From Clostridia bacterium (lineage in GTDB: Bacteria; Bacillota; Clostridia; CAKSNL01; HGM11501): a stretch of DNA of 64,000 nucleotides. The position numbers and the translations under genes were made by a program. The notes under the pieces were generated by a model. The model did no database searches, had not been told where the DNA came from, and saw only the letters and a program-made list of their open reading frames with translations. Positions 19,066 to 40,657 of this stretch are shown here, one piece after another. Numbering within the stretch: position 1 is the first letter of the stretch; each line of letters starts with the position of its first letter. The stretch lies in assembly GCA_017411325.1 (NCBI GenBank), contig JAFQQJ010000040.1:133659-197658 (forward strand), written 5' to 3'.

Positions 19066-19123
19066 TTCTGTCACCTCGGAATGCAGTATAGCACAAGCAA
19101 AGAGATAAATCAAGAACTAAAAT

Positions 19124-19155: not shown

Positions 19156-19225
19156 CTTCAGCCATAGCCTACTAATTTACATCTTCCGGAAGGAGCAAGC
19201 CCCTTCCCTACAAACTATATATGGT

Positions 19226-19493
19226 ATAAATCCACACGCCGCAGGCGTATTTCATATTGCGAAGCAATATTTCACGCCCGAAGGGTATTTCACAATAGAT
19301 GCAGGTTATTTTAGTGATATTCCAACTTCGTTAGAGTGATATTTTTACAGAGTAAAAGTGATATTATATTTGCCATTAAACTGTGCGAAGCACAATATCA
19401 CTCGGTGTAATCCGAATATAACTGTGCAGCAATATAAACTTGCCAAAGGCAAATATAACTGAAAAAAGACATCCGAAGATGTCTTTTTTCTGG
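19226..19493. repeat. 268-bp word/mini-hairpin array unit R, copy 1
   Basis: It differs from 19608-19875 at 4 positions by hand alignment. Words are TATTTCAC x3, GTGATAT x3, ATATCAC x1 and ATATAA x3, separated by at least 9 small stem-loops. It ends in the terminator at 19462-19489. Confidence 0.9.
19462..19489. terminator. bidirectional intrinsic terminator hairpin (end of unit R copy 1)
   Basis: The sequence is aaaaaa-gacatc-cgaa-gatgtc-tttttt. Confidence 0.6.
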
Positions 19494-19607
19494 CTTTCAC
19501 GTACATAATAGATGCAGTATATTTTTAGTGAAATATCAACTTCGTTGATGTGAAATAATTTCTGTCGAAATTGTGAAATAGAAACCTAACGGTTTCTGTG
19601 AAATGAA
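19494..19607. repeat. array module S (GTGAAATA x4) between the two R copies
   Basis: GTGAAAT(A/G) occurs at 19528, 19550, 19573 and 19598. The copies are separated by atcaac-ttc-gttgat, aatttc-tgtc-gaaatt and gaaacc-taac-ggtttc. The leader cataatagatgcagtatattttta is paralogous to 19290-19313. Confidence 0.85.
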
Positions 19608-19875
19608 ATAAATCCACACGCCACAGGCGTATTTCATATTGCGAAGCAATATTTCACGCCCGAAGGGTATTTCACAATAGATGCAGGTTATTTTAGTGAT
19701 ATTCCAACTTCGTTGGAGTGATATTTTCACAGAGTAAAAGTGATATTATATTTGCCATTAAACTGTGCGAAGCACAATATCACTCGGTGTAATCCGAATA
19801 TAACTGCGCAGCAATATAAACTTGCCAAAGGCAAATATAACTGAAAAAAGACATCCGAAGATGTCTTTTTTCTGG
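19608..19875. repeat. 268-bp word/mini-hairpin array unit R, copy 2 (abuts tRNA-Leu)
   Basis: See copy 1. The terminator at 19844-19871 lies 1 nt from the tRNA CCA end. Confidence 0.9.
19844..19871. terminator. bidirectional intrinsic terminator, terminates tRNA-Leu on the minus strand
   Basis: The sequence aaaaaa-gacatc-cgaa-gatgtc-tttttt lies immediately 3' of the tRNA. Confidence 0.7.
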
Positions 19876-19961
19876 TGCCCGAGACCGGAATCGAACCGGT
19901 ACGACTTTTAACGGTCGCAGGATTTTAAGTCCTGTGCGTCTGCCAGTTCCGCCACTCGGGC
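19873..19961 (-). tRNA. tRNA-Leu, anticodon UAA, CCA encoded
   Basis: The minus-strand read is GCCCGAG-TG-GCGGAACTGGCAGACGC-A-CAGGA-CTTAAAA-TCCTG-long variable arm-ACCGG-TTCGATT-CCGGT-CTCGGGC-A-CCA. It folds as a class II cloverleaf with the anticodon loop CU-UAA-AA. Confidence 0.9.
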
Positions 19962-21166: not shown

Positions 21167-22198
21167 TTACTCTTCAGTATATACAGTCTTAGCAAATACA
21201 AACTTTACAATAAGCACAAGTATAACCGCAATGATGATGAAGTATGTCCATGCCATTGCCGCCGCAATACCTGCATTACCTGTTGCAACGCCGTTTTTGT
21301 CGATAAGCTGCATAACCTTGTTCTGATAATATGTGAAGGAGTCAATAATTGTATATACAACACATACAAGAGTCATGGGTGATAAAAGAGGGAATGTAAT
21401 CTTCCAGTATTCTTCCCATGCTGTTGCACCTTCCATTGATGAAACCTCGTAATAGGATTTCGGAATACCCTGAAGAGCAGAAAGATATAAAAGAATCTGA
21501 ATACCGCTCTTCCAGGTGATGTCGAAGATGTTACCTACAAGACTCTTTAAGTAGTCGATAATAGCAGGGCTAAGACCGCTCTGATTAAGAATCTTTAAGA
21601 TAACTGATTCTTCCTGGAATGTAAAGATGTTTGATGATGCATTAAGTGAAACAGAAGTGCTCATACCGGTTTTTGAAAGGATTTCCAGAATAACACCGGA
21701 TGCGATGATTACGGGAAGGAAGAACATAACTCTCGCAACAGTTCTTCCCACGAACTTCTGATTCAATATCTGTGCGATAAACATACCGAAGAATGCTATA
21801 ATCGGCACCTGATAAAGCATATCCTTAAGGGAGTCAAGAAGTGCGGGAATAAAGTCGGGATCTTTTCTGAAGATATAGATATAGTTATCTATTCCCTGGA
21901 AGTCCAGCTTTATACCGCCGGCTCTTACACCAACTTCGCAGAAGGAATATATGAGTGACGTAATAACGGGAACCAGGAATAAGAATATTACGCCGACAAT
22001 CCAGGGAAGGATGAACCAGTAACCCGCTCTTGCCTGACGTTCAGAAAGAGCTGCTGCCGCTTTTCTCTGCCGCTTTGCGCGCTTTGCCGCTTCCTTAGCC
22101 GCTTTGATTTCTTCCTTGGTAGGTTTTCTTTCGCTGTCAAGTATAACTTCTTCCTTGACCTCGGTTGAAGCAGTATTTTCTTTCTTTGCCATTATCAC
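21167..22198 (-). CDS. ABC transporter permease (MalF/LplB-like) with a Lys/Ala/Glu-rich N-terminal extension
   Basis: It has polytopic TM topology and the EAA-like loop YEVSSMEGATAWEEYWKITFP. The N-terminal 60 aa include KEEIKAAKEAAKRAKRQRKAAAA. Confidence 0.7.
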   Translation of the reverse strand: MIMAKKENTASTEVKEEVILDSERKPTKEEIKAAKEAAKRAKRQRKAAAALSERQARAGYWFILPWIVGVIFLFLVPVITSLIYSFCEVGVRAGGIKLDFQGIDNYIYIFRKDPDFIPALLDSLKDMLYQVPIIAFFGMFIAQILNQKFVGRTVARVMFFLPVIIASGVILEILSKTGMSTSVSLNASSNIFTFQEESVILKILNQSGLSPAIIDYLKSLVGNIFDITWKSGIQILLYLSALQGIPKSYYEVSSMEGATAWEEYWKITFPLLSPMTLVCVVYTIIDSFTYYQNKVMQLIDKNGVATGNAGIAAAMAWTYFIIIAVILVLIVKFVFAKTVYTEE

Positions 22199-24558
22199 TC
22201 ACCCCTTTCTGCTGCGTAGCCTTTAGCTTCTACAACTGTACCGTTTTCTGTCTGATACTCATTTTCAGTATAGTTTACATAAACAGACACGCCGTTATTA
22301 TAAGTGGTTTTATAAATACCCTCTTCGATTTTTTCGTGATTATCAATATCGGTACCTTCAACCATCTTCATTACTTCGGCATATGCCTTGTAATCTTCTA
22401 TCATATCGTCCTTCCACTGTGAGTAGTTACAGCTGTAAAGATACTTAAGATAGGTTTCCTTAAGACCTGTTGTTTCGCCGGCAACCAAACTGTAAAGAAG
22501 GCTTGATCCGCTTTCAACAGCATTAAGGATAATGTTTTCCGGGGTACTTGACATATTTACTGTTTCAGTTGTATATGTCTTATAGCCTCTTACCGCTATC
22601 TGATAGAAGGGTACTGCCTCGTCGGCAATTTCAACATATGTATCCTTTGAAGGAATATCAACAAGTATATCGGAATACAAAATGGCATATTCGCTGGGTT
22701 CTGCAGAAAGAAGGTTGATTGATCTTTCCTTGTAGCCCATTAAAATTTCTTCAAACTGATTTGCACACTCGCCTCTTGTATGTCCGTTCTTGTTGGCACC
22801 GTCGGAATATACCGTTCCGCCGATATTTTCAATGGAAACTGCTGTGATATTTGCGCTTTCGCATTTATCTGCAAACTTAAGTGCAGCTTCCTTTACTAAA
22901 GGAGCTTTTAAGAGACACCATCTTGAGCCCATATTAATGTGAGCCGAAATACCGCTGGACTGATATGCAGGTGCCTGGCTTGTATACTTTACGGAATCAG
23001 AAAGACGGCTGTAGCCGTTGCCGGATTCTGAGAAGTTAACAAAGTCAATATTCATATAAATGCTCATATTTTTGGAATCAAGATAGCTCTTGGTTTTCTT
23101 ATAGCCGTTCTTTCCGCCGATGGAGCCTTCAAAGTTAGGCTTAACCTGAACCTTTTTACGTCCGGATTTCTTTATCCAGTCGTTATATCTGAAGATAACA
23201 TTATCTACTCCGGCTTCCGTCATATCGTCGGAAATATTTCTGATGTCTTCATAGGTTGTCATAACCTCGAACTTATTCCAGGGAATACCGAGTATGCTTG
23301 TCTTCTTCTCAACGCCGGCATACATATCAAGGAGAAGAGCGCCTTCTCTGTAATCGTCGGCCTTTTTCATACCCTTTTCTTCAACAAGGTACTTACGGTA
23401 GCGCTTAGCCATTCCGACATAGGAGGCATCGTCACCGCTTAAGCAATAATACTTAACCTTGTAATTCTTTTCAAGGTCGCGAAGCTCCTGGCTCATAGGC
23501 TGAGCAGTTCCTTCCTTATCAGCGCCCTTAATAATCTTATGAAGGTATGAAGAATATACCTTGTTATAAGCTGTTTCATATCCGCTTACTTCTGCATTTA
23601 TAAAGGAAACAGATGCGTTATCGGCAACCACACCCATAAGTGCGTGTCCGTCATCCTTTACAGTTCCGAATACGGGAAGCATATAACGGTCGGAAGCCTT
23701 TCTGTTGTAATCCTCGGACTTGCTTTCCTTATAGTTTCCGAATACGGGAGCCGCATAAGGCTGAGTTATGTTGGAGCGGCCGTTATTCATATAGATAAGT
23801 GCGCCGCTTCCGTCGGGAATGAACATATAGCCGGATTCATTATAGCTTGTTGCGCCCATTGCAGGAAGAAGCTTGATTTCTGTAATATTATAGTCAACTT
23901 CCTGTTCAACCGTTTCACCTAAGTGACCTACAGCGATTTTACCCATTCTTGAGTAGCTTAAAAGCGCTTCTTCATCGTTAAGAAGTACTTCTGCAACAAA
24001 GGCATCACCTTCAAGAGAGTATCTTACGGGAACTACAAATTCCACTTCTCTGAATTTGAAAACGAACTTTACGGAATCATCTTCAACCTTGCAGGAAACC
24101 TTGTCGGAGAGAACACTTTCATAGTACATATTGGCATCAAAATAGTTGTAGCCCTGTGTGAAGGATACCGCTATCTGAGATTTTGTTCTGTAGAAAGCAT
24201 GACCTGATGCCTGACCGATGATATCGGCATCGTTTCCTATAGGATTACTGCGCCATACATAGCCTGAAGCCTTATCAAGAACCGCAACTTCACCCATACG
24301 CTTTTCCGCATTATCAGTGATTGCGTAAAGAGCAAGGCTGTCATTTTCTGTGATAAGAGTGAACTGAGGTTCAATGCTCGAGTTATCGGGAGTTTTCCCC
24401 GCCATCTCCGCCTTGAAGGAATTTTTCATTGCCTCGGTTAATGTAATTGTAGCCGTTGATTCTGTAGTTGCTTCCCCTTCTGTTGCCATAGCTGAAAAGC
24501 CCGTAAGAAGAGATACAAGGAGAGTAAGTATTAATAATATTGAAGTATATTTTTTCAT
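22195..24558 (-). CDS. large secreted protein of unknown function (possibly glycan-processing, resembles what I recall as DUF5696)
   Basis: 787 aa with the signal peptide MKKYTSILLILTLLVSLLTGFSAMA. I read no catalytic motif with confidence. It is embedded between permease genes. Confidence 0.5.
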   Translation of the reverse strand: MKKYTSILLILTLLVSLLTGFSAMATEGEATTESTATITLTEAMKNSFKAEMAGKTPDNSSIEPQFTLITENDSLALYAITDNAEKRMGEVAVLDKASGYVWRSNPIGNDADIIGQASGHAFYRTKSQIAVSFTQGYNYFDANMYYESVLSDKVSCKVEDDSVKFVFKFREVEFVVPVRYSLEGDAFVAEVLLNDEEALLSYSRMGKIAVGHLGETVEQEVDYNITEIKLLPAMGATSYNESGYMFIPDGSGALIYMNNGRSNITQPYAAPVFGNYKESKSEDYNRKASDRYMLPVFGTVKDDGHALMGVVADNASVSFINAEVSGYETAYNKVYSSYLHKIIKGADKEGTAQPMSQELRDLEKNYKVKYYCLSGDDASYVGMAKRYRKYLVEEKGMKKADDYREGALLLDMYAGVEKKTSILGIPWNKFEVMTTYEDIRNISDDMTEAGVDNVIFRYNDWIKKSGRKKVQVKPNFEGSIGGKNGYKKTKSYLDSKNMSIYMNIDFVNFSESGNGYSRLSDSVKYTSQAPAYQSSGISAHINMGSRWCLLKAPLVKEAALKFADKCESANITAVSIENIGGTVYSDGANKNGHTRGECANQFEEILMGYKERSINLLSAEPSEYAILYSDILVDIPSKDTYVEIADEAVPFYQIAVRGYKTYTTETVNMSSTPENIILNAVESGSSLLYSLVAGETTGLKETYLKYLYSCNYSQWKDDMIEDYKAYAEVMKMVEGTDIDNHEKIEEGIYKTTYNNGVSVYVNYTENEYQTENGTVVEAKGYAAERGE

Positions 24559-24575
24559 AATTTATCTCTCCTTTC

Positions 24576-26687
24576 TTATATAGCGAGCTTGTAGAACAAT
24601 TCATACATGATTGTTGTAACGAAGGTGGATACCTGGCTGTATAAAACTATCAGAAGCATCATAAGGAATACTATAATAAGCATACCTACCGCTGTCAACA
24701 ATGTCATAAGAATTGCCTTCTTTGTTGTGAATGTGTGAACAGTCATCATACCCATGAAAAGAAGTATAGCAGTCCATGCATAGCCAACGAAAAGTATTGC
24801 CGTAACAAATACTGCTTCATTCTGTACCATTACCTGGCTGATGATTGTTACAATGAATGCTGCCACTGTAGTCGGAATAAGTGCATAAGAAGCATAAATG
24901 AATATGTTCTTAAAGGTACCTTTACCGTCAACAAGTGTTGTGATTGCCCAGTTTGCAATACATCCTACAAGAAGAATACCTATTGTGGTTGCAAAAATCA
25001 TAAAGACATTCAGGTTGTTGATATTTGTGTCATTGAAGATATAGTCTTCATACTGACGCATAATAACAGCTGATGCATACCAGAGGAATGCGAATAAAAT
25101 TGCAAGAGGAAGCGATTCCTTCTTATTGTAACGCATTTCGCTCATACCTACGCTGGGATGAAGCATATTGTAGAAGGGATATTTCCACTTTGCCATTCCT
25201 GCATAACCGGTTTCTTCAAGTGTCTTGTAACCTATCTTAGCATAAATCTTTTTCTTGTTTTTGCTTAAAACAACCAGTATAACAACTGCCGCTATAATAA
25301 TACCCATTATCATAGCAAAGTTGTCCATTATGTACTGGCCTCTGTACTTTTCTCTTGCTTCTGAATAGCCTTCTCTGTCGTATGCAGCATGATAATGCTC
25401 CATCGCAGCAAGGTATTCACCCTGCAGATACTCAGCTCTTGCAATACCTCTGTATGCAAGCTCGGAGTTTGTATTGAGTTTAAGAACCTCGTGCCAGGGT
25501 TCTAATGCCTTTTCATATTCACCGTGCTCGTACATATATGAGCCGAGCATAATCTGTGAGCCGTAGTATGTGGGCTCAAGAACAGTAAGGTTATTTTTGC
25601 TTCCGTCAAGGATTAAAACCTTATCCCCTATTGTTTCGATAGCTGTGGGGTTTGAATACTGACCCAAGGTCTGCTCGTTTCCGCCGAAGATCATAAGAAG
25701 TTCGTTATCCTGATTGTATACGAACACCTTACAGAAGTTTCTGTCGAGAGCGTAAACGAAACCTTTTTCACTTACGTTAACGTCGATGAATGCCGCCTGC
25801 TCATATCCTGAGCCACCGCCACCGATATAAGCCTCGCCGTATTCGTTTCCGGCAAAAAGGTTGTTTCCTGCAGGGTTAACCTTTCTTATCTGATCCTCGT
25901 TTCTTAAGAAAAGAGTTGCAGTATATAAGAAGTCACCGTCAAGATACATATTGTCGAAGGGAACGGGCTGAATGGACATCATTTTCTCAATCTGCTCGTC
26001 ACTCATAAAGCTTCTGTAGAAGATAAGCTGTATAATGTCTGCAGTTACCGTTACGGCGTCTGTAGCGAAGAATCCGCCAAATTCACCGTTTTCTGCAATA
26101 ATCATTGCACCGTCTACGATGTTGTCCGCAAGAACATACATATCACCGGTTGCGGTTACTTCGATTTTCTTGGGACGGAAGATGAGATCGGTAGATACAA
26201 GGTCTGATACGGGCTTTCCGTAGCTTCTTTCTATTTTACCGTTCTGATCTATTACGATAACCCTTGCATTTTCTGTGTCGCACACATAAATTTCACCGTC
26301 GGGAGTTACGCAGATACCCTGGGGATTTTTAAGTGTTGTGGGGTTACCGTTTTCATCTGTGAAAGTGTCAATTATCTTGCTTAATTCAAGCTCGGGTGTA
26401 AGGATTATAATACGTCCGTTACCTGTATCCAATATATAAAGGAAGTCATTTACATCCACATACATATCGGAGGGGTTTTTGAGATATCCGGTTCCCCATT
26501 CAAATCCGTTATATGCTTCTTTCGGAAGATATCCGTTGGGAGCCGAAGCCTCGCCGTAATAGTTGTAGTTATAACCATAGTAAGGATCTTCCGCATAAAC
26601 AAGTAAGGAAGACGCTAAAATTGCAACTATGAGCATAAGGCAGGAAAGAAGTTTTGCCGCCTTTTTGATTTTTTTGTTAACAGCCAT
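24576..26687 (-). CDS. membrane protein fusing an NHL-repeat beta-propeller, TPR repeats and a C-terminal Yip1-like polytopic domain
   Basis: It has a signal anchor and NHL-like repeats (PSDMYVDVNDFLYILDTGNGRIIIL, PQGICVTPDGEIYVCDTENARVIVID). The TPR-like part is ALEPWHEVLKLNTNSELAYRGIARAEYLQGEYLAAMEHY. The C-terminal 230 aa contain 5-6 TM helices. Confidence 0.6.
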   Translation of the reverse strand: MAVNKKIKKAAKLLSCLMLIVAILASSLLVYAEDPYYGYNYNYYGEASAPNGYLPKEAYNGFEWGTGYLKNPSDMYVDVNDFLYILDTGNGRIIILTPELELSKIIDTFTDENGNPTTLKNPQGICVTPDGEIYVCDTENARVIVIDQNGKIERSYGKPVSDLVSTDLIFRPKKIEVTATGDMYVLADNIVDGAMIIAENGEFGGFFATDAVTVTADIIQLIFYRSFMSDEQIEKMMSIQPVPFDNMYLDGDFLYTATLFLRNEDQIRKVNPAGNNLFAGNEYGEAYIGGGGSGYEQAAFIDVNVSEKGFVYALDRNFCKVFVYNQDNELLMIFGGNEQTLGQYSNPTAIETIGDKVLILDGSKNNLTVLEPTYYGSQIMLGSYMYEHGEYEKALEPWHEVLKLNTNSELAYRGIARAEYLQGEYLAAMEHYHAAYDREGYSEAREKYRGQYIMDNFAMIMGIIIAAVVILVVLSKNKKKIYAKIGYKTLEETGYAGMAKWKYPFYNMLHPSVGMSEMRYNKKESLPLAILFAFLWYASAVIMRQYEDYIFNDTNINNLNVFMIFATTIGILLVGCIANWAITTLVDGKGTFKNIFIYASYALIPTTVAAFIVTIISQVMVQNEAVFVTAILFVGYAWTAILLFMGMMTVHTFTTKKAILMTLLTAVGMLIIVFLMMLLIVLYSQVSTFVTTIMYELFYKLAI

Positions 26688-40379: not shown

Positions 40380-40566
40380 TTCATCCGCAGTAAAATTAAG
40401 TCATTCCCCGATAGCACTCCGCAGATGCGACAGTTCAATACATATTCTGCATTGACCCAGCAGAAAAAACGTGGCTATTTTCTCCGCTTCGGCAAAAGCC
40501 CCTTTCTTTCCCTCTTCTGCCCGAAGTTTTTACCGGAAATACTTATAGCTTTTGCGCCTCTATCTC
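40380..40566 (-). promoter_or_regulatory. lysine riboswitch (L-box) with expression platform
   Basis: The minus-strand read is AGATAGAGGCGCAAAAGCTATAAGTATTTCCGG...GGGAAAGAAAGGGGCTTTTGCCGAAGCGGAG...CTGCTGGGTCAATGCAGAATATGTATTGAACTGTCGCATCT. It contains the conserved L-box blocks GAGGCGC, AGTA, GAAAGG, GCCGAAG, CTGG, TTGAA and CTGTC. AGAT/ATCT can close P1. Confidence 0.8.
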
Positions 40567-40657
40567 TTATTTTTTTATAATTTTACCATAAACGCCATAT
40601 TTCGTCAAGTCTTTTCATCAAACTTTTTGCTTTCATATATTAAATTAACCTTTTTTC

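Follow-up and report, generated by a model that had tools for sequence, protein, structure and literature searches.

An array of Gut-1 family elements behind a tRNA-Leu gene in Clostridia, and the two-part unit of which Gut-1 is one half

The REP/BIME elements of Enterobacteria are extragenic repeats at operon ends, in which a short conserved head lies beside a palindrome and alternating modules, parted by short linkers, occur in variable number; supercoiling, gyrase binding, and mRNA 3' ends have been proposed as their roles. REP palindromes are imperfect and about 35 bp long, carry a GTAG head, are associated with a RAYT transposase, and within any one genome belong to a single sequence class or to a few; hundreds of dispersed copies per genome are typical. 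The attC sites of integrons (e.g., the VCR of Vibrio), which were first noticed as enigmatic intergenic repeats, are palindromes of conserved structure and variable sequence that lie between small cassettes and are recognized as folded single strands. Among RNAs, the CsrB/RsmZ sponges and the TRAP-binding trp leader are multivalent protein binders. The Gut-1 motif (Weinberg et al. 2010, Genome Biol 11:R31; PMC2864571) consists of three short hairpins parted by GUGAAAU, was found in gut metagenomes only, and was rated "Y" for RNA on covariation. The sole remark on it in that study is that its detection was limited to human gut sequences; tRNA linkage, a closing helix, a bidirectional terminator, and a PF05635 neighbor are not mentioned for it (PMC2864571). 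Since 2010, Gut-1 has remained an orphan motif, and the locus described here, together with its relatives, supplies a context for it.

We conclude with high confidence that a repeat region in the 64,000-nt stretch of Clostridia DNA analyzed here (the window) is a Gut-1 family array whose 382-bp repeat is polymorphic in origin. The initial annotation had presented the region as an undescribed ncRNA or repeat, to be given up if Rfam held a matching family; cmscan against Rfam returned Gut-1 (RF01706) twice above the gathering score of 50, on the minus strand, and by that measure the novelty is refuted. Five more matches, distributed over both strands, fall below the gathering score (Table 1). 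In the cmscan alignments (model positions 1 to 77), the window modules show the Gut-1 layout of three hairpins parted by the GUGAAAU linker. Gut-1 matches were likewise recovered in 17 of 17 related element loci and not at all in the element-free orthologous locus L249. The 77-nt Rfam model spans just one half, the one nearer the tRNA, of a two-part unit. This larger unit is joined, next to the CCA of many different tRNAs, to a terminator that works in both directions; one of the Rfam seed sequences (BAAZ01025322) itself follows closely on a tRNA and a terminator and runs on into reversed AUAUCAC words.

A repeat search of the window delimited a direct repeat of 273 nt with 98% identity and a spacing of 382. 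Most of what had been described from the letters alone proved accurate: a near-identical repeat with a 382-bp period, hairpins of differing sequence between identical words (all those listed were found in the sequence), bidirectional terminators, and adjacency to a tRNA. A base-by-base recount confirmed the four differences within 19226-19493 (19241 G/A, 19333 A/G, 19346 T/C, and 19425 T/C), with two further ones at the left edge of the 273-bp repeat (19224-19225). Both terminator-like hairpins were recovered by a terminator scan, each with 13 pairs, an A-run in front, and a T-run behind, and the second adjoins the CCA of tRNA-Leu(UAA). Nor is there a credible ORF, since the region is covered only by minus-strand ORFs of 53 to 74 aa that overlap the tRNA or the hairpins; small ORFs running through the words were also rejected because the distances between words are not divisible by three. 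The window contains GTGAAAT 29 times, where 12.9 ± 3.2 would be expected, and 8 of these occurrences fall in the repeat region; one copy holds nine perfect hairpins of at least 5 bp (mean 1.4 and maximum 7 in 500 shuffles). Folding of the 382-nt period gave z = -8.8 with DNA parameters for the plus strand and z = -7.4 as RNA for the minus strand, no shuffle being equally stable in either case. The view that did not stand is that a 268-bp tandem duplicate is the unit: each block comprises 2.5 modules, which alternate in orientation, and a fourth module makes up the 109-bp spacer between the blocks. The whole is an array of a modular element of hairpins and heptamers, present 3.5 times and placed between the tRNA terminator and the promoter-like site of an MFS transporter gene.

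Table 1. Features of the repeat region and its flanks, in window coordinates
Feature	Position	Strand	Evidence or remarks
MFS transporter gene	19065-17836	-	Pfam MFS_1
Promoter-like site of the downstream MFS transporter gene	19085-19113	-	TTGATT-17-TATACT with TG
Repeat block copy 1	19221-19493		Closest to the relatives' single block, 98.2-99.6% identity
Truncated A-type E half, distal copy	19224-19295	-	Gut-1 55.1 bits, above gathering; no O half after it, as in relatives L246/L247
T-type O half, distal copy	19302-19369	+	Gut-1 24.8 bits; C.A mismatch gttaga (difference at 19333)
Closing helix, distal T-type E half	19364-19377 / 19445-19458		Inverted repeat
T-type E half, distal copy	19390-19461	-	Gut-1 32.2 bits
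T1, distal copy	19461-19490	both	Inverted repeat, terminator scan; identical to the proximal copy; followed by ctgg, as is the proximal copy where it runs into the tRNA
A-type O half	19526-19609	+	Gut-1 47.1 bits; GTGAAAT x4 (19528, 19550, 19573, 19598); hairpins atcaac-ttc-gttgat, aatttc-tgtc-gaaatt, agaaacc-taac-ggtttct; sits in the 109-bp spacer, missing from L246/L247
Repeat block copy 2	19603-19875		96.7-98.2% identity to the relatives' block
A-type E half, truncated and fused to the next unit	19606-19677	-	Gut-1 55.7 bits, above gathering; + strand words ATTTCAC/ATTTCAT; hairpins acgcc-aca-ggcgt, attgc-gaa-gcaat, gccc-gaa-gggt
T-type O half, proximal copy	19694-19768	+	Gut-1 26.3 bits; GTGATAT x3; hairpins tccaac-ttc-gttgga, ttttc-acagag-taaaa
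Closing helix, proximal T-type E half	19747-19756 / 19830-19839		TATATTTGCC / GGCAAATATA
Inverted repeat holding the proximal closing helix	19746-19759 / 19827-19840		
T-type E half, proximal copy	19772-19843	-	Gut-1 35.6 bits; + strand words ATATCAC / ATATAA; hairpins tgtgc-gaa-gcaca, tcgg-tgtaat-ccga, ttgcc-aaa-ggcaa
T1, proximal copy	19843-19872	both	Terminator scan, inverted repeat; perfect 13-bp palindrome GAAAAAAGACATC-TTCG-GATGTCTTTTTTC, bidirectional intrinsic terminator
tRNA-Leu(UAA) gene, CCA encoded	19873-19961	-	ARAGORN; Rfam tRNA 57.4 bits
Promoter-like site of tRNA-Leu	20004-19976	-	TTGACA-17-TATTCT; promoter scan

The natural unit is a two-part element of roughly 150 to 190 bp. 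Read toward the tRNA, a complete unit begins with an O half, in which four GTGAWAT words alternate with three hairpins of 5 to 7 bp, and continues through an AT-rich junction into an E half, the terminator T1, and the CCA of the tRNA gene. The E half has one hairpin followed by three ATWTCAC words alternating with mini-hairpins of 3 to 5 bp and is closed by a covarying long-range helix of 10 to 12 bp, which is separated by 3 to 4 nt from T1, a perfect palindrome of A-run, stem, and T-run. The resulting word pattern "+++(+)---(-)" recurs across dozens of MAGs of Clostridia. Relatives come from the guts of ruminants (the source of many of the related MAGs), humans, rabbits, and chickens. Pairing is nearly perfect throughout: 345 distinct hairpins, evaluated on word-anchored segments, contain 1486 Watson-Crick pairs, 7 G.T, and 21 A.C, and T1 keeps its design in 33 distinct related loci with 532 Watson-Crick pairs and one G.T. 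In 42 E halves, the perfect complement of the closing helix averages 10.6 nt (7.0 nt in unmatched pairs), with at least six covarying sequence variants. The hairpin E3 and the closing helix are both conserved and mutually exclusive. Compared with the complete unit at L140, the A-type E half at 19606-19677 lacks the last hairpin, the 3' strand of the closing helix, and a terminator of its own. The word type is uniform inside each unit, with two types adjacent in this genome and a third, ATGAAAT/ATTTCAT, in relatives. The predicted minimum-energy fold is a ladder in which O and E words pair to form four-way junctions, and it would account for this uniformity. We set it aside as unsupported, since such a ladder and the well-covarying closing helix exclude each other topologically; for ATGAAAT/ATTTCAT, there is no nested register for such pairing, and a 1-bp extension of each hairpin is the simpler reading.

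These elements are like REP/BIME in being extragenic and at the ends of operons, in combining a head with a palindrome, and in their alternating orientation and variable module number; however, their palindromes are perfect, 9 to 18 bp long, and position specific, their head is a 7-mer, and no RAYT/Y1 transposase was seen near them, nor does any transposase family recur among the 587 neighboring ORFs. The tandem array-gene units at two loci (L273 and L270) recall attC, which is one long imperfect hairpin, whereas these elements consist of words and many mini-hairpins; no R'/R'' core sites (GTTRRRY) were seen in the inspected element sequences, and no integrase recurs among the neighbors. With the CsrB/RsmZ sponges and the TRAP leader they would share many copies of a short single-stranded motif between or on hairpins for an oligomeric protein, but motif, organisms, and genomic context differ, and the halves of the element lie on opposite strands.

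The orthologous loci in two close relatives (L246 and L247) contain a single 273-bp block, and that of a more distant relative contains no element, which makes the duplication a recent polymorphism. The 382-bp repeat is a strain-level rearrangement between repeated modules, produced, we infer, either by duplication here or by deletion in the relatives through recombination between two blocks. T1 arrives together with the element in the presence/absence comparison. Between genomes, the block is 98.2 to 99.6% identical, as opposed to 83 to 85% for the MFS gene, 93% for an ABC permease, and 89% and 95.5% for the spacers; it is better conserved than every flanking segment except the tRNA, and four of the five differences in L246 fall within one hairpin, with a compensatory pair among them. 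By this measure, the element, which keeps a fixed orthologous position, is under purifying selection. The initial annotation had kept a neutral, recently expanded satellite as a fallback, and the variation in copy number between close relatives and the truncation of one window unit would suit such a functionless repeat. We consider it very improbable, given the conservation of the block relative to its flanks and the retention of architecture, position-specific hairpins, and closing helix across many Clostridia families and host species.

Across about 150 related loci, the element lies behind many different tRNAs, with a tRNA within about 130 nt in 12 to 13 of 60 genome loci. Its only specific recurrent neighbor is a gene for a PF05635 four-helix-bundle protein: in an all-against-all comparison of the 587 neighboring ORFs, only this family and a generic ABC-ATPase cluster recur in more than two loci. 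At least four exact words occur within 330 nt upstream in 39 of 62 relatives of the PF05635 gene, and 17 further relatives have one forward and one reverse exact word upstream, six of which, when inspected, showed the identical architecture with ATGAAAT/ATTTCAT words; in one clade of these genes, about 90% lie directly behind an element. A tRNA ends upstream in 34 of 41 PF05635 loci, with at least 12 different terminal tRNAs. A unit of T1, E half, O half, promoter, and PF05635 gene recurs behind at least 12 different tRNAs. Homology between such units extends from 25 to 40 nt past the tRNA to the PF05635 stop codon, the last word adjoins the -35 of the downstream promoter, and the gene that follows PF05635 overlaps it and is variable. 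Units at different tRNAs are 20 to 30% diverged; L273 has three successive array-gene units, and L270 has five tandem arrays. Conversely, a genome scan found a PF05635 gene at just about 12% of element loci, no homologue is encoded in the window, and PADLOC returned no defense-system match for the protein. PF05635 genes also occur inside intervening sequences of 23S rRNA, which have been described as selfish elements (PMC4990558). Our literature search found nothing tying Gut-1, PF05635, and tRNA ends together, and this context gives a handle on two unexplained families at once, Gut-1 and the stand-alone PF05635 proteins.

The loops differ sharply between the strands. On the strand reading ATTTCAC, triloops are GNA in 69 of 99 cases and TNC in 3, tetraloops are GNNA in 37 of 64, with UNCG complements in 2, the loop-closing pair is C-G in 148 of 158, and wobble-compatible pairs stand at 21:7 (p = 0.0125). 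Thus, loop and wobble statistics favor the complement of the GUGAAAU strand annotated in Rfam. They also resemble the rules for DNA mini-hairpins: GCGNAGC cores recur with stems of 3 to 4 bp (E-half hairpins hold GCGAAGC, GCGTAGC, or GCGCAGC), and tetraloops of the GNRA and GNYA kinds number 17 and 20. A class of mini-hairpin DNA, GCGNAGC / GCGNNAGC, is described in PMC13037366, and the stability of such hairpins depends on the closing pair (PMC3201870). GNA and GNNA loops with a C-G closing pair, as found here, match the stability rule published in these sources. This class is physicochemical and not a genetic element. Since the T1 terminators, which surely act as RNA, are equally perfect (532:1), the scarcity of G.U cannot separate DNA from RNA; perfect pairing is expected if both strands must fold. 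A promoter scan assigned no promoter to either array strand, promoter-like sites occurring at chance frequency.

We tentatively favor, as the leading one among several possible readings, a single-stranded hairpin-and-heptamer scaffold for a multimeric partner. The element would act in single-stranded form, with stable mini-hairpins (C-G closing pair and GNA/GNNA loop) keeping the ATTTCAC or ATATCAC heptamers unpaired side by side; the display of heptamers would be independent of hairpin length and so offer a multivalent platform, and the two halves would present them on opposite strands, diverging from the junction. A word spacing that ranges from 16 to 25 bp, a poor fit to phasing on B-DNA, and the 1486 Watson-Crick pairs support the single-stranded form. 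We narrowly prefer DNA hairpins, extruded or exposed in the interval that separates a highly transcribed tRNA gene from the following promoter, with short RNAs ending at the flanking terminators nearly as likely. The best candidate for the partner would be the PF05635 (Avd-like) protein encoded behind the element in many genomes. Against the scaffold, the window and most element loci of the genome scan have no PF05635 gene, and an intrinsic terminator follows the T1-side half on the ATTTCAC strand always and the O half in some loci (L134, L169, L174, and L186), and a half followed by an intrinsic terminator is the usual layout of small RNA genes. Nor does the scaffold model offer an account of why the A-type unit of the window is truncated yet conserved. 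That the products are structured small RNAs, as Rfam classes Gut-1, serving as a protein sponge or scaffold through repeated single-stranded heptamers, is thus a serious possibility, though short of probable. The Rfam matches and the "Y" rating favor it, as does the A-run to which T1 owes its bidirectionality: all 33 distinct T1s have it, and it is needed only if transcription comes from the element side. Also in line with RNA are the short gap between closing helix and T1, the unidirectional terminators straight after the O half at L169 and L186, the T-type junction with TGaTATTAT and TATAAT on opposite strands as a possible divergent -10, the exclusive alternatives of E3 and closing helix, which resemble an RNA switch, and the z score as RNA. 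Yet no consistent promoter is seen, the commoner A-type junction has no acceptable -10, triloops on stems of 3 to 4 bp (GCGNAGC) would be marginal structures in RNA, GNYA matches GNRA in frequency among the tetraloops, and any single transcript over the unit would read one half in the "wrong" sense. For a transcript running toward the tRNA (the Rfam strand), by read-through of T1, there is no promoter space between T1 and the E half, and loops and wobbles indicate the other strand. A better fit to the data would be short RNAs read on the ATTTCAC strand, with the E half transcribed toward the tRNA and ending at the shared bidirectional terminator and the O half transcribed oppositely, ending at the second terminator or entering the next gene.

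Two further readings would make the element a cis-acting DNA site. Rather than an ordinary small RNA, Gut-1 could be half of a tRNA-end element whose working form is a folded DNA single strand, complementary to the one annotated in Rfam, and a cis site of an unrecognized cassette system in gut Clostridia; we regard this as unlikely. The site would be one of recombination or a boundary, read like an integron attC, or could be a binding platform for a pentameric Avd-like protein; cassettes would consist of the PF05635 gene and a variable second gene behind tRNA operons, with the window copy a gene-less remnant expanded by recombination. Such a system would park PF05635 genes and their variable partner behind tRNA and rRNA operons and would parallel the intervening sequences of 23S rRNA in which PF05635 genes lie. 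It would suit the recurrence of the bounded unit behind different tRNAs, the successive units at L273 and L270, the presence, absence, and copy-number polymorphism at the window locus, T1 included, the duplicated unit at L186, which includes T1 and has one copy away from any tRNA, and the selfish intervening sequences that carry PF05635. Against this, no recombinase, transposase, or integrase recurs among the neighboring ORFs, neither a target-site duplication nor a direct repeat derived from a tRNA was found, the divergence of units at different tRNAs gives no sign of recent transposition, plasmid matches are none and phage matches almost none, and the element is under purifying selection in a fixed position. 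An array of iterons or operators, bound as duplex DNA by a GTGAWAT-recognizing transcription factor or nucleoid protein, in which the palindromes would be incidental or sites of a second dimeric protein and the array would regulate or insulate the neighboring promoter, is improbable in our view. The words do lie in both orientations around a dyad, most arrays sit between a terminator and a co-directional promoter, the last word adjoins the -35 at PF05635 loci, and ATATCAC fits WATCACW, the heptad bound by the omega repressors of inc18 plasmids. A duplex site would not require a loop composition that is strongly strand specific and coupled to word orientation, and the variable word spacing, the hairpin potential kept by compensatory changes in inter-word segments of differing sequence, and the uniform word type per unit despite two neighboring types in this genome also speak against such sites.

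Other candidates were rejected. CRISPR arrays have identical repeats of at least 23 nt, unique nonpalindromic spacers, and cas genes; here the repeat is only a 7-mer, the "spacers" are conserved position-specific palindromes, and there are no cas-like neighbors. The contrast with CRISPR drawn initially, identical words between differing hairpins, is fair, but the hairpins are not arbitrary, as the hairpin at each position is homologous across genomes. The repeats of type III toxin-antitoxin RNAs (ToxI-like) form a direct tandem array just in front of the gene for a ToxN-family toxin, whereas the modules here alternate in orientation and the neighbors are tRNA-Leu and an MFS transporter. For a phage or plasmid origin, true elements made up only 3 of 120 hits in an IMG/VR pattern scan, the others being AT-rich chance matches; PLSDB gave no match, and phage-metagenome records gave one partial match. 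An att site of an integrative element is contradicted by the lack of an integrase near the window locus and of a tRNA-derived direct repeat beyond CCAG; a template/variable repeat pair of a DGR is contradicted by the four copy differences, which are plain transitions with no adenine-specific pattern. By eye, DnaA, Rex, cre, and Spo0A boxes show half-site or one-off resemblances only.

For annotation, the message is that tRNA-adjacent "satellites" in Clostridia MAGs are Gut-1 arrays, the copy number of which shifts by recombination. Their density is about one element locus per 64 to 100 kb, with one locus in the window and, over 472 kb of DNA selected because it contained a site, 76 sites.

The array beside the tRNA-Leu gene was compared with Rfam 15 by using cmscan, and two matches above the gathering score of the Gut-1 RNA (RF01706; 50 bits) were recovered together with weaker ones. 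The feature, which the initial annotation did not recognize as a described noncoding RNA or repeat family, is real and belongs to a known family. Weinberg et al. (2010; PMC2864571) described Gut-1 from 43 representatives and report it only from human gut sequences, not from any sequenced organism. In one of its seeds, the 3' end of a tRNA and a terminator are followed by GUGAUAU-hairpin repeats and, after these, by AUAUCAC repeats in reverse. The Rfam model represents only one part of the element (the E half, with ATWTCAC words, as read on the tRNA strand) and matches 17 of 17 element loci tested (52 to 79.5 bits). What makes this already known motif worth following up is its newly uncovered genomic context.

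Base-by-base comparison and a repeat search bore out the tandem duplication reported initially (4 substitutions per 268 bp, 382-bp period): the direct repeat spans 273 nt at 98% identity with a spacing of 382, and its copies differ at 19241, 19333, 19346, and 19425 and at two further positions at the left edge. Likewise confirmed was a terminator closing each copy (T1), the second at the tRNA-Leu CCA; both are perfect 13-bp palindromes preceded by an A-run and followed by a T-run. The hairpin and word structure is far above chance, as seen from perfect hairpins of at least 5 bp (9 per block versus 1.4 expected), the fold z-scores (-8.8 as DNA, + strand; -7.4 as RNA, - strand), and the excess of GTGAAAT (29 in the window versus 12.9 expected, with 8 of the 29 inside the repeat region). 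The 268-bp block is, nevertheless, not the unit: reading outward from the tRNA, it cuts across unit borders, and the 109-bp "spacer" forms a module of its own.

Features of the array at tRNA-Leu (W in the words is A in A-type and T in T-type units; O half, GTGAWAT words)
Feature	Position	Strand	Evidence or remark
tRNA-Leu(taa)	19873-19961	-	
T1, proximal	19843-19872		terminator scan; touches CCA
T1, distal	19461-19490		terminator scan
Direct repeat	19221-19493 / 19603-19875		repeat search
T-type unit	E 19843-19772; O 19768-19694		nearest tRNA after T1
A-type unit	E 19677-19606; O 19609-19526		E half truncated on terminator side
About 30 nt ending CCAG			between A-type O half and second T1
Second T1, second T-type unit, second truncated A-type E half			distal part of array
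Gut-1 RNA (RF01706)	19606-19677	-	55.7 bits, above gathering
Gut-1 RNA (RF01706)	19224-19295	-	55.1 bits, above gathering
Gut-1, weaker match	19526-19609	+	47.1 bits
Gut-1, weaker match	19772-19843	-	35.6 bits
Gut-1, weaker match	19390-19461	-	32.2 bits
Gut-1, weaker match	19694-19768	+	26.3 bits
Gut-1, weaker match	19302-19369	+	24.8 bits

Gut-1 belongs to a larger conserved unit that is linked with the ends of tRNA operons and, in many genomes, also with PF05635 genes. A family scan for three GTGAWAT words, with one genome per species, gave 120 loci, 73 of which hold word-hairpin-word units, nearly all in gut Clostridia metagenome-assembled genomes (MAGs; Oscillospiraceae, Acutalibacteraceae, Ruminococcus, and Christensenellaceae, from ruminants, humans, rabbit, and chicken). 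They share a single architecture, which, read toward the terminator, consists of an O half (four GTGAWAT words and three hairpins of 5 to 7 bp), a junction, an E half (one hairpin, then three ATWTCAC words with mini-hairpins of 3 to 5 bp), a degenerate fourth word, and the terminal T1 palindrome of A-run, stem, and T-run. Word type is uniform inside a cluster (76 A-type, 48 T-type, and 9 mixed), and a third type, ATGAAAT/ATTTCAT, was also seen. Among 42 distinct E halves, selected by gene orientation without use of complementarity, a long-range helix closes the half, its matched strands averaging 10.6 nt of perfect complement (minimum, 7) against 7.0 nt for unmatched pairs. This helix covaries through at least six sequence variants (among them AAATAAATCC, AAATTCGTTCC, AAATTTGCCC, ATATTCGCC, and TAAATCCACCC). 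Its 3' strand can alternatively form the last hairpin of the half (E3), so two competing, mutually exclusive helices are conserved.

In 12 to 13 of 60 genome loci, the element has the end of a tRNA gene no more than about 130 nt away, always on the T1/E side and usually with one base between CCA and A-run; among the isotypes are Arg, Trp, Leu, Val, Tyr, Thr, Gly, Asn, Gln, and Lys. In one locus (L243:2046-2853), the element stands behind the end of a 23S-5S-tRNA(Lys, Glu, Asn) operon, linking it to stable-RNA operons generally, beyond lone tRNA genes. When 587 neighboring open reading frames were compared all against all, just two clusters were shared by more than two loci: one of generic ABC-ATPases and one of a protein of ~115 aa matching PF05635/TIGR02436 ("four helix bundle protein," the 23S rRNA-intervening-sequence family), a family that also includes the Avd proteins of diversity-generating retroelements. 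The order T1-E-O-promoter-PF05635 gene is invariant; the gene lies directly behind a composite element in L140, L152, L155, L177, L196, L197, L239, and L242, and among L251 to L330. Stronger than this neighbor scan is the reverse test, begun from 80 metagenome loci with close relatives of the PF05635 protein, 62 of which had 260 nt or more of upstream sequence. In 39 of the 62, the 330 nt before the gene hold four or more exact words; a further 17 have a single exact word in each direction (the 6 inspected share the architecture, with words of the third type). The element, usually plus a tRNA, stands upstream of about 90% of one PF05635 clade, a link for which we found no literature.

The end of a tRNA or tRNA cluster, with at least 12 different terminal tRNAs, was found upstream in 34 of 41 PF05635 loci scanned, mostly 226 to 270 nt before the start codon. 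Units at different tRNAs are 68 to 81% identical from 25 to 40 nt past the tRNA to the PF05635 stop codon, where the homology ends; from locus to locus a different gene follows, overlapping that stop codon. The layout is that of a two-gene cassette in which the first gene is conserved and the second varies. The second gene, seen in L266, L270, L273, and L285 (from ~2845, locus coordinates), encodes, for example, a 165-aa protein starting MKIRIIGCSGSGKTYF, a 110-aa protein, or proteins of 148 to 150 aa. Five composite elements stand in tandem over ~850 bp after one PF05635 operon (L270:3442-4283), and three array-gene units succeed one another in L273:286-2908. The window itself has no PF05635 homolog.

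Orthologous loci were found through homologs of the adjoining MFS transporter. Two relatives (L246 and L247; MFS 90 to 92% identical) keep the ABC permease/tRNA-Leu/MFS synteny with one 273-bp block only and without the 109-bp module; the 382-bp tandem repeat is a recent polymorphism, either a strain-level gain or a loss in the relatives through recombination between blocks. A third (L249; MFS 76%) shares the synteny but lacks the element; its CCA is followed by another, plain terminator, and the Gut-1 model finds no match there, indicating that T1 is gained or lost together with the element. Its tRNA-Leu/MFS spacer (L249:3219-3500) retains ctgcagctattatgta, which resembles ctgcatctattatgta flanking the window O halves (19497-19520 and, partly, 19296-19310) and may be a remnant or shared leader. 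Upstream of the two ABC permease genes preceding the tRNA lie genes for a DUF5696 protein (787 aa) and a Yip1/NHL-repeat protein (703 aa; 22195-26687, - strand), in synteny kept in L246 and L249; farther along, a lysine riboswitch aptamer (RF00168; 112.3 bits) occupies 40404-40570 (-).

The element is under constraint. When the window is compared with its two close relatives, identity is 98.2 to 99.6% for the distal and 96.7 to 98.2% for the proximal block, compared with 83 to 85% for the MFS gene, 93% for the ABC permease gene, 89% for the ABC-tRNA spacer, 95.5% for the element-MFS spacer, and 99 to 100% for the tRNA. In L246, four of five differences fall in one 11-nt hairpin (acccttcgggc to gcactttgtgc), a compensatory pair included. 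These identities and this clustered change rule out the neutral, recently expanded satellite kept in reserve by the initial annotation, barring recent transfer of the locus, and neutral DNA is a most improbable account. The hairpin was exchanged whole in an otherwise nearly identical block (L246:3250-3345 versus window 19224-19295), and its replacement equals the hairpin at the equivalent position in L142 and L188, pointing to conversion by a paralogous copy.

The structure is also strand specific. Across 345 distinct hairpins anchored between consecutive words, there are 1,486 Watson-Crick, 7 G.T, 21 A.C, and 15 other pairs on the GTGAAAT strand, so wobbles are rare and biased 21:7 toward the ATTTCAC strand (P = 0.0125). 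On that strand, triloops are GNA in 69 of 99 cases and TNC in 3, tetraloops are GNNA in 37 of 64 (17 GNRA and 20 GNYA; UNCG complements only 2), and a C-G pair closes the loop in 148 of 158 cases. ATTTCAC is therefore the favored strand, opposite that annotated in Rfam, and, because word orientation is opposite in the two halves, their favored strands differ and diverge from the junction.

The reading that we tentatively favor is that the element would act as a single-stranded scaffold of extruded or exposed DNA, in which stable mini-hairpins would display the repeated heptamers to a multimeric partner. It draws on GNA/GNNA loops without purine preference, C-G closing, and GCGNAGC cores on 3- to 4-bp stems, which fit the published rules for extraordinarily stable DNA mini-hairpins (PMC13037366 and PMC3201870) better than RNA tetraloop preferences. 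The T1 hairpins are, however, as poor in G.U as the array hairpins (532:1 in 33 distinct hairpins), a scarcity expected wherever both strands must fold, which limits the weight of the DNA-like features. Short RNAs ending at shared terminators are a possibility that we hold with comparable reserve: as in small RNA genes, each half ends in an intrinsic terminator on its favored strand (T1 always; a second in L134, L169, L174, and L186). A promoter scan assigned no promoter to the array, promoter-like sites being at chance frequency, with a good symmetric -10 at the T-type junction only. A cassette or recombination site is an unlikely explanation, and duplex operators are still harder to credit, with variable word spacing (16 to 25 bp) and compensatory changes speaking against a plain operator array.

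Besides these units, Clostridia MAGs contain word-plus-hairpin arrays of different layout (L139:3300-3900, L136:5700-5960, and L128:4700-4900); in some of them, four GTGAAAT words lead into GTGAAGG and a long hairpin, and the reversed half is missing; in L139, hairpins alternate with a second word, CATCAT. The family of such arrays may thus be broader than Gut-1. An unannotated "Bacteriophage sp." contig from human feces (MT835815.1:5074-5179) is 81% identical over 109 nt of the T-type unit, and true elements are present in three IMG/VR loci (L023, L051, and L078); either host DNA has entered the viral bins or phages occasionally carry the element, both being possibilities.
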